Assembly (NCBI GenBank): GCA_036517535.1
Contig: DATDVS010000005.1
Coordinates: forward strand, 1 to 62,156
DNA from: Minisyncoccota bacterium
Lineage (GTDB): Bacteria; Patescibacteriota; Minisyncoccia; Phycocordibacterales; UBA9973
Reading direction: 5' to 3'
Length of the DNA: 62,156 bases
The notes beneath the pieces were generated by a model, which saw only the letters and a list, made by a program, of their open reading frames with translations, did not search any database and was not told the origin of the DNA. Of the stretch, positions 7,435 to 9,504 are shown piece after piece; position 1 is the stretch's first letter, and each line of letters begins with the position of its first letter. A program made the position numbers and the translations under genes.

Positions 7435-9504
7435 CTATTTATTGACCATTTTCACAAATTCTTCCTCGTTTAGGATTTTTACGCCGAGCTTTTCGGCAGT
7501 TTTGAATTTCGACCCCGGATCCGCGCCCGCCACCACATAGGAAGTGTTTTTGGAGACGGAGCCGGAAACTTTGCCGCCTAATTTTAGTATTCGCTCCTTA
7601 GTAATCTCCCGCGACATACGAGAGAGCGTCCCGGTGAGCACAAATTGGAGCCCGGTAAACTTGCCGGCTTTTACTTTTTCCGCTTTCTCCACCACTACGC
7701 CGTTTTTCTCCAGTTTTTTTATGAAATTTAAATTGTTTTTATCTTGAAAGAATTCATAAAGGCTCTGCGACACCGCTGGCCCTATATTTTCTATACTATC
7801 GATTTCGTCTAGGTCGGACCTAGCAGAATTGATTAATCTTTCCAGAGTTCTAAAATGCGTAGCTATGTCCCGCGCTGTTTCCTCCCCCACGTGCACGATG
7901 CCCAATGCCCACAGGAAGCGATGGAGGGGTATTTTCTTCTTGCTTTCGATCTCGCGCACGATATTATCCGCAGATTTTTCGCCAAAGCGTTCCAGTATCT
8001 CAATATCTTCTTTCTTTAAAGTAAAAATGTCTGCGGCATCAGTGATAAGCCCTTCATCTTTGAAACGCCGCAAGATCTTGGGCCCCAGCTCGTATATTTC
8101 AAATACTGACACAAAATGCTCCAGCGCTCGCTCATTCTTCGCCGGACACTTCTTGTTCGAGCAGAAATATGCTACGGATTCTTTAAGGTCCGACCTTGGG
8201 GAATTTTTAAGGTCGGACCTTTTCTTTTCGAGTTTCGTATTGCATGTCGGGCATTTCTCCGGCATTTTGAATTTCCTTTCCTTGCCGGTACGCATATGGG
8301 TCAGTACCTCCACCACTTTCGGGATCACGTCCCCGGCTTTCTCGATCACCACCGTGTCGCCGATTTTGAGCCCCAAGCGTTCTATCTGGTCCATGTTATG
8401 GAGCGTCGCCTTGCCTACCATTGAACCGGCTACCAGGGTAGGCTCAAATATTGCAAGCGGAGTAAGCACCCCTGTACGGCCTACATTTACCCGGATATCC
8501 TTCACTATGGTCGTCGCCCGCTCGGCCGGATATTTATAGGCCGCAACATAGCGCGGAGCTTTGCCGACGACACCCAAGACCTCTTGAAATACCACAGGAT
8601 CCACATGGATCACAATGCCATCTGTGCCATACATAAATTTAGTCCGAATTTTTTCGAATTTTTTTATAAAAACAATAACTTCATTTAAATCCTGGCAGAT
8701 CGCATCATGCATATCGACTTTAAAACCGATCTTTTTTAAAAATTGGTGCTTCTCCGAATGCGTTTTGAAATCCGAACTGGCAATGTCGTAAGCGAAAAAG
8801 TCCAGTTCGCGCTCACGAGCAAGCCGGGGGTCGAGCTGGCGGAGAGAGCCGGCTGCGGCGTTGCGGGTATTGGCAAAAGGGACTTTCCCTTCACGCTCCT
8901 GCTTTTTATTTAACTTCTCCAGCGTCTTTTTCGACATCACCGCTTCGCCTCGGACTTCAATATGGATCGGCGGGAAAAGGTCGGACCTTTTTGAATTCCC
9001 AAGGTCCGACCTTGAGGAGCCGAGGATTAAAGGTATCGAGGGGATTGTTTTTAAATTCTCCGTGATATCTTCCCCCACAAACCCATCGCCCCTGGTCGCA
9101 CCCCTCCTGAACTCCCCTTTTTCATAAATGAGGGCTACCGCCAGCCCGTCAAACTTTACTTCACAGAAATAATTGAATTTTGATCCCGGGATCAATTTTT
9201 TTATTCTTTTTTCCCAGTCATATAATTCCTCCTCTCCGAACACATCATTAAGCGAAAGCATTCGCGTCCTGTGCTTTACCTTTACGAACTTATCCAGAGG
9301 TTTCCCGGCCACCCTGTTCTCCCCAGCATTCGGGTCGTAGAATTCCGGATACTGCTTGAGGAGGGACCTTAATTCCCGGGTCAAAGAATCGTACACTTCA
9401 TCTGTGACTTCCGGGGCGTTCTCTGTATGGTAGAGGTCTCGTAACCTGGCGATTTCCGCCCGCAATTTGGTTATTCTCTGCCCTATTTCCTTCTTATCGC
9501 TCAT
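7435..9504 (-). CDS. ligA: NAD-dependent DNA ligase LigA (carries two R1 insertions and one solo arm)
   Basis: 689 aa; adenylation motif [11 protein letters not shown] fold, Zn finger CPTC...C..C, HhH, C-terminal BRCT. Confidence 0.95.
7809..7823. repeat. R1 solo arm (perfect 15-nt palindrome CTAGGTCGGACCTAG) inside ligA
   Basis: Read directly; encodes ARSDLD in LigA. Confidence 0.4.
8185..8221. repeat. R1 palindromic element, in frame in ligA (Zn-finger loop)
   Basis: AAGGTCCGACCTT GGGGAATTTTT AAGGTCGGACCTT; coding strand reads [14 protein letters not shown]. Confidence 0.9.
8977..9013. repeat. R1 palindromic element, opposite loop orientation, in frame in ligA
   Basis: AAGGTCGGACCTT TTTGAATTCCC AAGGTCCGACCTT; coding strand reads [14 protein letters not shown]. 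Confidence 0.9.

Follow-up and report, generated by a model that had tools for sequence, protein, structure and literature searches.

Palindromic DNA lying within or beside bacterial genes has been described in several forms. Rickettsia palindromic elements (RPEs) are palindromic repeats of about 100–150 bp that are inserted in frame and are confined to Rickettsia (Ogata et al. 2000, via PMC10969869). Repetitive extragenic palindromes (REPs) and REP doublets forming hairpins (REPINs) are extragenic palindromes of 20–40 bp that carry a GTAG or CGTC tag and are mobilized by REP-associated tyrosine transposases (RAYTs), cognate single-copy transposases of the Y1 HUH type that are usually flanked by the repeats (PMC3116915, PMC3337134, PMC3733652). 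Palindromic amphipathic repeat coding elements (PARCELs) consist of 75-nucleotide units in tandem arrays, encode a 25-residue amphipathic repeat, and form whole domains of membrane proteins (PMC2996958); that paper also discusses palindromic coding DNA with both strands open, for PARCELs and in the work of Claverie and Ogata cited there. The DNA uptake sequences of the Neisseriaceae and Pasteurellaceae occur about once per kilobase, are common as single copies, and originate by point substitution (PMC2346458). Here we analyze a family of hairpin-forming repeats in a 62,156-nucleotide stretch of DNA from a Minisyncoccota bacterium (contig DATDVS010000005.1), the whole of which we call the window, with a focus on the copy at 8977–9013 in the DNA ligase gene ligA. 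A sequence-only reading of this DNA had held that the copy is flipped in relation to others and yet encodes nearly the same peptide, and that such built-in symmetry may explain why the element is tolerated inside genes. No description of the repeat family was found in the full-text literature, in which the arm sequence itself was searched.

The copy at 8977–9013 belongs to a repeat family whose members lie in frame in disordered protein loops, occur in both polarities, are conserved at the nucleotide level, and are more alike within than between genomes. We think that it is probably a DNA-level miniature palindromic element, similar in kind to RPEs or REPINs, that is recognized by a putative sequence-specific factor and filtered for reading frame, insertion site, and a hydrophilic loop. 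The window holds six copies, all in frame within minus-strand genes (two in ligA and one each in an ileS-like gene, argS, comEC, and recJ); the sequence-only reading had listed five of these and overlooked that at 52437–52472 in comEC. With up to two mismatches allowed, the arm motif occurs 14 times in the window against an expectation of 1.2, and none of 100 shuffles reached 14. The copies and their host genes are as follows:

7435–9504, minus strand: ligA, NAD-dependent DNA ligase of 689 aa with two copies of the element, the insert peptides being residues 164–176 and 428–441.
8977–9013, ligA slot 1: core hairpin with arm AAGGTCGGACCTT (8977–8989), loop TTTGAATTCCC (8990–9000), and arm AAGGTCCGACCTT (9001–9013); the loop is G-first on the sense (minus) strand.
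8967–9023, ligA slot 1: long form of the same copy, with a 5-bp outer helix (TCGGC/GCCGA), a 5×5 internal loop, and the 13-bp stem.
8185–8221, ligA slot 2: core hairpin in the zinc-finger loop; read on the sense strand, it has a C-last loop and purine-rich flanks, the polarity probably being opposite to that of 8977.
43814–43850, in a gene for an IleRS-like class I aminoacyl-tRNA synthetase (40847–44800, minus strand): copy with one G.A stem mismatch.
46858–46894, in argS (45328–47079, minus strand): copy in the N-terminal domain, with one A.C mismatch on the sense strand.
52425–52484, in comEC (51310–52788, minus strand): long-form copy with core 52437–52472 and a 7-bp outer helix; polarity as at 8977.
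53635–53670, in recJ (53286–54947, minus strand): copy in the linker between the DHHA1 and OB domains, reading RSDL-KNPQ-GPTL.

The two 13-bp arms in slot 1 of ligA are 100% complementary and enclose an 11-nucleotide loop (13/11/13), and the plus-strand loop at 8990–9000, TTTGAATTCCC, is the reverse complement of GGGAATTCAAA, in agreement with the sequence-only reading. On the same strand, the loops of the other copies read GGGGAATTTTT at 8185 and 46858, GGGGAATTCTT at 43814, and GGGGATTTTT at 53635. The internal loop of the long form at 8967–9023 reads GGGAA/GAGGA on the plus strand and TCCTC/TTCCC on the sense strand, the purine-rich "F" strand being the plus strand and ligA reading the "R" strand (GSS...FPP), and the whole folds as RNA with −31 kcal/mol (z −5.3). 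The 8977 copy is of the long form and the 8185 copy of the short form. The slot 1 insert is also found in independent assemblies (P0002, P0003, and P0004) and in six further ligA orthologues read as DNA; the independent assemblies and the intact open reading frames exclude that the repeat, and with it the flipped copy, is an assembly artefact.

We compared synonymous codons between the 18-codon element of slot 1 and the rest of the gene in seven ligA sequences of 70–78% amino-acid identity, using columns with one shared residue. The codon was identical in all seven sequences in 7/9 element columns vs. 11/342 columns elsewhere in ligA, and for residues with at least four codons the counts were 6/8 and 0/189 (P = 9e-9 for slot 1 element vs. 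the rest of ligA, Fisher test). Because the codons adjoining the element vary freely among the orthologues, the conservation is not accounted for by a ligA segment transferred recently. Four of the orthologues carry the compensated arm pair GGTCGAACC/GGTTCGACC, a variant shared with further copies in the same genomes (L121, L113). The edit distance between loops was 3.8 within genomes and 6.1 between them (P = 3e-25), and this sharing of loops within genomes implies the copying of whole hairpins. The codon identity in slot 1, the compensated variants, and the within-genome likeness of the loops indicate that the nucleotide sequence is maintained, which could come about by selection, by conversion among the copies of a genome, or by both. 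Something must hold the arm constant across the candidate phyla radiation (CPR).

The orientation of a copy has to be judged from the G/C run of the loop and from the flanks because the arms carry no polarity; the central G/C of the arms was considered as a marker and rejected, since this pair is invariant to reverse complementation. We scored the loop by its G run beside arm 1, which on the other strand is a C run before arm 2, and the flanks by the five bases on each side, which are purine-rich on one strand. The comparison of the two markers and the frame counts rest on 96 confidently coding copies. Copies with G-first loops had 3.7/10 flank purines and those with C-last loops 6.2/10 (P = 0.008, Mann–Whitney test), and this agreement of the two markers runs against the direction expected from a composition artefact. 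The G-first copies at 8977 and 52437 have 0/10 flank purines, and the opposite group has 10/10 at 8185 (C-last), 7/10 at 46858, and 8/10 at 53635. As two independent asymmetric markers agree, the polarity of the 8977 copy is probably opposite to that of 8185, and also to those of 46858 and 53635, as had been claimed; for 43814, named in the same claim, the markers are discordant, with a C-last loop and 3/10 flank purines. The two polarities are nearly equally frequent on sense strands, with 23 G-first vs. 18 C-last loops and 30 purine-flank vs. 22 pyrimidine-flank copies, and the family is thus not confined to one orientation relative to transcription. The GC skew is negative over the whole window, consistent with one replichore, and with both polarities present under a skew of one sign, a strict link between polarity and the direction of replication was rejected.

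A history without any flip is possible but has the smaller share of our belief. The ancestral loop would then have been a symmetric one of the GGGAATTCCC type, and the asymmetry of the 8977 loop would have been gained after insertion through A enrichment of the sense strand; we are similarly hesitant about the corollary that GGG...AAA, AAA...CCC, and AAG...AAA are three outcomes of one process and hold no polarity information. Aligned without gaps, the loops of 8977 and 8185 match at 5/11 positions whichever way they are turned, as one would expect without a flip, and the seven contiguous matches of the flipped comparison (AATTCCC) require a 1-nt shift, the two loops not being exact reverse complements. 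Likewise, both ligA copies have AATTC at loop positions 4–8 on the sense strand, 52/96 copies are A-rich at both loop ends, and the slot 1 orthologues vary only by GGG vs. AAG. The ligA of locus L117 has the sense loop AAGAATTCAAA in both slots despite opposite polarity of the long-form flanks between slots 1 and 2, a pattern that fits the absence of loop polarity; one flip of the loop alone, with the inverted arms in place, would also produce it and would be more parsimonious than six substitutions. What a history without a flip leaves unexplained is the concordance of the loop with the independent flank marker, with both setting 8977 and 52437 against 8185, 46858, and 53635.

The arms equal their own reverse complements and hence encode one and the same peptide in both polarities: translated from either strand, they gave RSDL, KV(R/G)P, or G(P/R)T according to frame. 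The self-palindromic arms and their RSDL reading in both directions were thus rightly described in the sequence-only reading, and so were the loop peptides KNSP and GNSK of the two ligA copies. Symmetry does not account for these loop peptides, however: an exact flip of the 8185 copy in the same frame encodes a 12-residue peptide with a loop other than GNSK, and the antisense of the 8977 copy gives a 12-residue peptide of its own, so that the hydrophilic loop does not stem from the symmetry. At the same codon position of slot 2, the window has KNSP and the ligA of L120 has GNLK. Whichever the polarity, A predominates on the sense strand at the A/T end of the loop (31 vs. 6, P = 4e-5), and purines predominate there over the loop as a whole (64 vs. 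17 copies, P = 1e-7; mean of 0.60 against 0.52 in flanking coding DNA). A-rich sense loops irrespective of polarity suggest selection or loop flipping rather than built-in symmetry. The element is thus found on sense strands in either orientation with a similar hydrophilic peptide, as had been proposed, but the hydrophilicity comes from the A-richness of the sense strand.

The proposed freedom from stop codons proved modest. The 8185 copy has 4/6 and the 8977 copy 5/6 stop-free frames, and the family mean of 4.24 is modestly above the 3.39 of shuffled sequences and the 3.85 of random 37-mers from the window. The orientations of the coding copies are close to the even distribution expected under orientation-independent coding, but the frames are not: all three are used, with 64/96 copies in the RSDL frame, 24 in GPT/GRT, and 8 in KVxP, and the RSDL frame exceeds the one half predicted by stop avoidance (P = 0.001).

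The protein side of the insertions is seen most clearly in LigA. Of 120 LigA homologues, 104 are without any arm-encoded peptide; the empty allele of slot 1 reads VLKSP followed directly by FPEYLEVRGE, and the filled allele is 13 codons longer. Protein P0004, which is 86% identical, has the slot 1 copy in common with the window but a different insert in slot 2, so that of the two ligA copies, 8977 is the older. In the AlphaFold2 model of the window LigA, residues 163–175 and 430–445, corresponding to both inserts, are coil with a predicted local distance difference test (pLDDT) score <50. In orthologues, both slots hold other, unrelated perfect-hairpin inserts that encode quite different peptides. 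As slots in coil of pLDDT <50 accept unrelated hairpins as well, tolerance is mainly a property of the protein site, and the suggestion that the symmetry of the element explains it was not borne out as it stood; the sequence-only interpretation as a whole is partly supported. In these genomes, in-frame hairpin inserts appear to be commonplace and to belong to several families. Pfam PF03119 (zinc-binding domain), reported for many homologues, was not reported for the window LigA, whose zinc-finger loop carries the slot 2 insert.

The other inserts at the ligA slots are diverse. That in L123 (6001–8175) has a 19-bp stem made from GGACATCSGATGTCC arms and encodes GHPMSKWTSDVQ, a further one is an element of ~85 nt with a stem of ~29 bp (KNSSALLHPAGGTFRQKNFS), and among proteins P0005–P0120 the same slots are occupied by the peptide families RRGVGGEV, PPAKGEVGRGS, and TTPSPLL... 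The ligA of L120 has three paired copies of the present element and that of L121 has two copies with identical variant arms. The window ligA also contains an arm-like perfect 13-bp palindrome at 7810–7822, TAGGTCGGACCTA, that encodes ARSDL and may have arisen by chance or by conversion toward the arm; it was rejected as a third insert because the homologues read SARQDLAEID at the same length, making it native. Next to ligA, at 9535–11288 in the window and in loci L119–L123, lies a cluster of type IV pilin-like (N_methyl), prepilin peptidase, and type II secretion system E/F ATPase/platform genes, present in all related contigs examined.

Beyond the window, the element was found in at least 115 further loci in at least 82 metagenome-assembled genomes (MAGs), nearly all Patescibacteria among the matches listed, with one genome scanned per species. 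The loci are labelled Nomura-, Kaiser-, Moran-, Yanofsky-, Zambryski-, Taylor-, Lloyd-, Yonath-, and Collierbacteria (Microgenomates), Saccharimonadia, and Paceibacteria-type. Loci L022, L028, L041, L049, L100, and L107 are in MAGs labelled Bdellovibrionales, Bacteroides, Gammaproteobacteria, or Pseudomonadales and may be mis-binned CPR contigs; the element would then offer a simple marker of CPR contigs in metagenome bins. A scan of 2.9 million viral contigs gave 0 matches, and we thus see no sign of a phage vector.

The element is 35–38 bp long, or ~55 bp with the outer helix. Its architecture is nested, as each arm is a palindrome around a central G or C, and in 95/98 copies the bases at the centers of the two arms can pair with each other. 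The arms start with (C)AAGG and finish with CCTT(G), the flanking position −1 being C in 51% and +1 being G in 53% of the copies. Arm variants exist, are compensated between the two arms, and form "dialects" such as GGTCGAACC, GGACSGTCC, and GGTCTGGCC. In comEC, the arms AAGGTCTGGCCTT/AAGGCCAGACCTT are divergent yet mutually compensated, have lost the self-palindrome, and are read in another frame (QGLALDSLKARP), and the long-form copy folds with −33.4 kcal/mol (z −7.3). In recJ, the second arm is in another frame because the loop has 10 nt. Outer complementarity of at least 6 bp was found in 24 copies vs. 2.8 expected, with the sequence of the outer helix varying and its pairing kept, and in a subset of copies, the long form, the GGGAA/GAGGA 5×5 internal loop precedes this variable helix. 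Exact arms were paired at a spacing of 9–13 nt in 253/270 cases (94%) and were solo in 17/270. Solo arms are often at the center of longer perfect palindromes, such as TTCCAGG-AAGGTCGGACCTT-CCTGGAA (L005:1029, L053:1712 and 2214, L063:6704, and L112:6047 and 6127). Few other exact twin-palindrome families were found in the fetched loci, and a search of the window with Rfam at gathering thresholds reported only a tRNA (4661–4745) and nothing at the hairpins.

Some copies are intergenic, and those of L044 and L080 resemble bidirectional terminators. A Pfam tally of the host proteins of 94 copies was broadly housekeeping, including class I synthetases, GatA/B, topoisomerase I, tRNA-modification enzymes, UvrB, and LigA. 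The tally does not support an exclusive bias to genome-maintenance genes, though ligA itself is enriched, holding 6/13 non-ascertained copies while making up 12% of the examined sequence (P = 0.003); this count leaves out the slot 1 copies of L117 and L119–L122, as these loci were chosen by those copies. The IleRS-like host (40847–44800, minus strand) has 1317 aa; a PF00300 histidine phosphatase domain (residues 526–610) interrupts its catalytic domain, and it ends in a long C-terminal extension. Upstream of its gene, a 0.5-kb spacer contains a solo 15-bp palindrome, CAAGGACGGTCCTTG, at 44886–44900, whose variant GGACSGTCC recurs in L054 and L120, and a match to a T-box leader far below threshold (44796–44941, minus strand, E = 0.07, 18 bits vs. 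a gathering threshold of 93).

According to the explanation that we favor, new copies would arise by insertion or by conversion from other copies in the genome, and the arm AAGGTCSGACCTT, two-fold symmetric over 13 bp, would be kept near invariant, most likely through a putative sequence-specific and probably dimeric factor. A copy would persist only where it adds whole codons without a stop in a disordered surface loop or linker, and the survivors would be translated, mostly as RSDL-xxxx-RSDL. The sense strand of the loop would be kept A/purine-rich and hydrophilic by selection or by a presumed loop inversion between the arms, and the palindromic arms and the A/purine-rich sense loop would together give similar peptides in both polarities. 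The 8977 copy would then be an old long-form copy on the pyrimidine-flank strand and the 8185 copy a younger short-form copy of opposite polarity.

Several observations weigh against this explanation. No transposase or partner was found in a phmmer search of open reading frame fragments from 0.94 Mb (the window and the fetched loci), a weak test made with a single E. coli RayT (best E = 0.09). Inspection by eye of the window and ligA junctions, with no dedicated scan, gave no consistent target-site duplication; AAAGAA stands on both sides of the 8185 copy, in an A-rich context. Insertion or excision polymorphism between strains was not seen. In ligA, the same slot, frame, and polarity are reused, meaning either one old insertion or strict site specificity, and a neighbor-joining tree that scatters the slot carriers is poorly resolved. 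That the inserts are translated is presumed from intact reading frames. Finally, the near-identity of the arm across distant CPR lineages and the synonymous conservation would also fit a signal that benefits the host.

Such a signal, the main rival to our explanation, would make the arm useful to the host and not a mobile parasite: it might be an uptake-type sequence for the competence machinery that CPR bacteria possess, or a place where a conserved dimeric DNA protein binds or cuts. We consider such a signal unlikely though worth weighing. Its embedding in coding DNA would be due to the scarcity of spacer in tiny genomes, and its upkeep to selection or uptake-biased recombination, a scenario that we rate as low as the signal itself. 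The occurrence of the same 13-mer in distant CPR classes, the strong synonymous conservation of the slot 1 copy, the arm dialects, and the enrichment in ligA would all follow from it, as would the presence of recJ and comEC among the window hosts, and the terminator-like intergenic pairs of L044 and L080 have their counterpart in uptake-sequence pairs. The density of about 1 per 10 kb in the window is, however, far below that of known uptake sequences, and the placement of 94% of the arms in inverted pairs of fixed spacing, the origin of the copies as insertions of 12–13 codons rather than products of point mutation, and the sharing of loops within genomes do not suit a sequence of that type; the hosts, among them aminoacyl-tRNA synthetases, GatA/B, TopA, and tRNA-modification enzymes, are broadly housekeeping and not specifically devoted to genome maintenance. 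It is similarly doubtful that AAGGTCSGACCTT is a functional DNA signal of the whole superphylum that was written into essential CPR genes as translated hairpins and then kept at the nucleotide level. Candidate readers would be the competence/DNA-uptake apparatus or a conserved hairpin- or cruciform-binding recombinase or nuclease. If true, this would amount to a conserved cis-acting code laid over coding sequence across a whole bacterial radiation, with the loop "flip-flop" reconciling it with protein function.

The hairpin could also act in the mRNA, where it might direct processing, affect stability, or make the ribosome pause between segments of the protein, and be conserved for its RNA structure. 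The sense RNA indeed folds very stably (−20 to −33 kcal/mol, z −2.7 to −7.3), the outer helix keeps its pairing while its sequence changes, and the sole varying synonymous site of the slot 1 element (GGC/GGT) changes a pair to G.U on the sense strand. But both polarities occur on sense strands, with internal loops made up of purines alone on one strand and of pyrimidines alone on the opposite one, the self-palindromic arms have a symmetry of the duplex-DNA type, and no Rfam family matches; the mismatches in sense stems are A.C in 3 cases and G.U in 0, although these 15 imperfect copies, from a set ascertained on perfect arms, are too few to conclude. An mRNA role thus seems improbable to us. 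We give hardly any credence to RSDL-x4-RSDL as a selected protein motif with the DNA palindrome as its by-product: the excess of the RSDL frame over stop avoidance is what such a motif would produce, but one third of the copies read GPTL/GRTL or KVGP/KVRP, the synonymous codon choice is fixed, the peptides fall in coil of low confidence, and some copies are intergenic. Both polarities on sense strands and the use of all three frames point instead to action at the DNA level, not that of RNA or protein, and it is on this reading as a whole that we settle, as the probable one.

CPR bacteria cannot be cultured, and their DNA transactions are poorly known. The hosts of the element include core enzymes such as DNA ligase, aminoacyl-tRNA synthetases, topoisomerase I, RecJ, and ComEC, and the inserts account for part of the unusual length variation of CPR proteins. 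The synonymous conservation and the constancy of the arm make the element unlike a decaying selfish insert and suggest a putative sequence-specific factor.

Of the described systems, RPEs share with this element the in-frame placement of palindromes in unrelated housekeeping genes, their translation as fold-compatible surface segments, and the coexistence of several families; the position in frame within an open reading frame was seen for the 6 copies of the window and for 96 elsewhere. The present element differs in its size of 35–38 bp (~55 bp in the long form), in its CPR-wide distribution outside Rickettsia, in arms that are themselves palindromes, and in orthologous copies that are conserved at synonymous sites instead of decaying. 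With REPINs it has in common the size class, two palindromic units inverted to form a larger hairpin, populations within genomes, and long persistence at fixed sites, but it is intragenic and in frame (6/6 window copies and most elsewhere), and no GTAG or CGTC tag was apparent, by inspection and with no dedicated scan, in the arms or in the base composition of the flanks. It differs from miniature inverted-repeat transposable elements, which have terminal inverted repeats and a target-site duplication and derive from an autonomous insertion sequence, in that the whole element is one inverted repeat and, by inspection, has no consistent flanking direct repeat at the window copies or ligA slots. 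Like uptake sequences, it is a short conserved motif found within genes in both orientations, with inverted terminator-like pairs and dialects; unlike them, it is much rarer per kilobase, nearly always forms hairpins of fixed spacing, and arises by insertion. PARCELs are likewise coding DNA with dyad symmetry whose opposite strand is open, which is the same concept as the "orientation-independent coding" of the sequence-only reading, but here single, dispersed hairpins contribute 12–13 residues each to housekeeping enzymes. In-frame palindromic inserts are thus already known from Rickettsia, the notion of palindromes open on both strands is of long standing, and the point made for the 8977 copy is a refinement rather than a discovery. 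What seems to be unreported so far is a much smaller element with nearly the same 13-bp arm in distant CPR lineages, hosted by core enzymes and, in the slot examined, conserved at synonymous sites while the host gene diverged.

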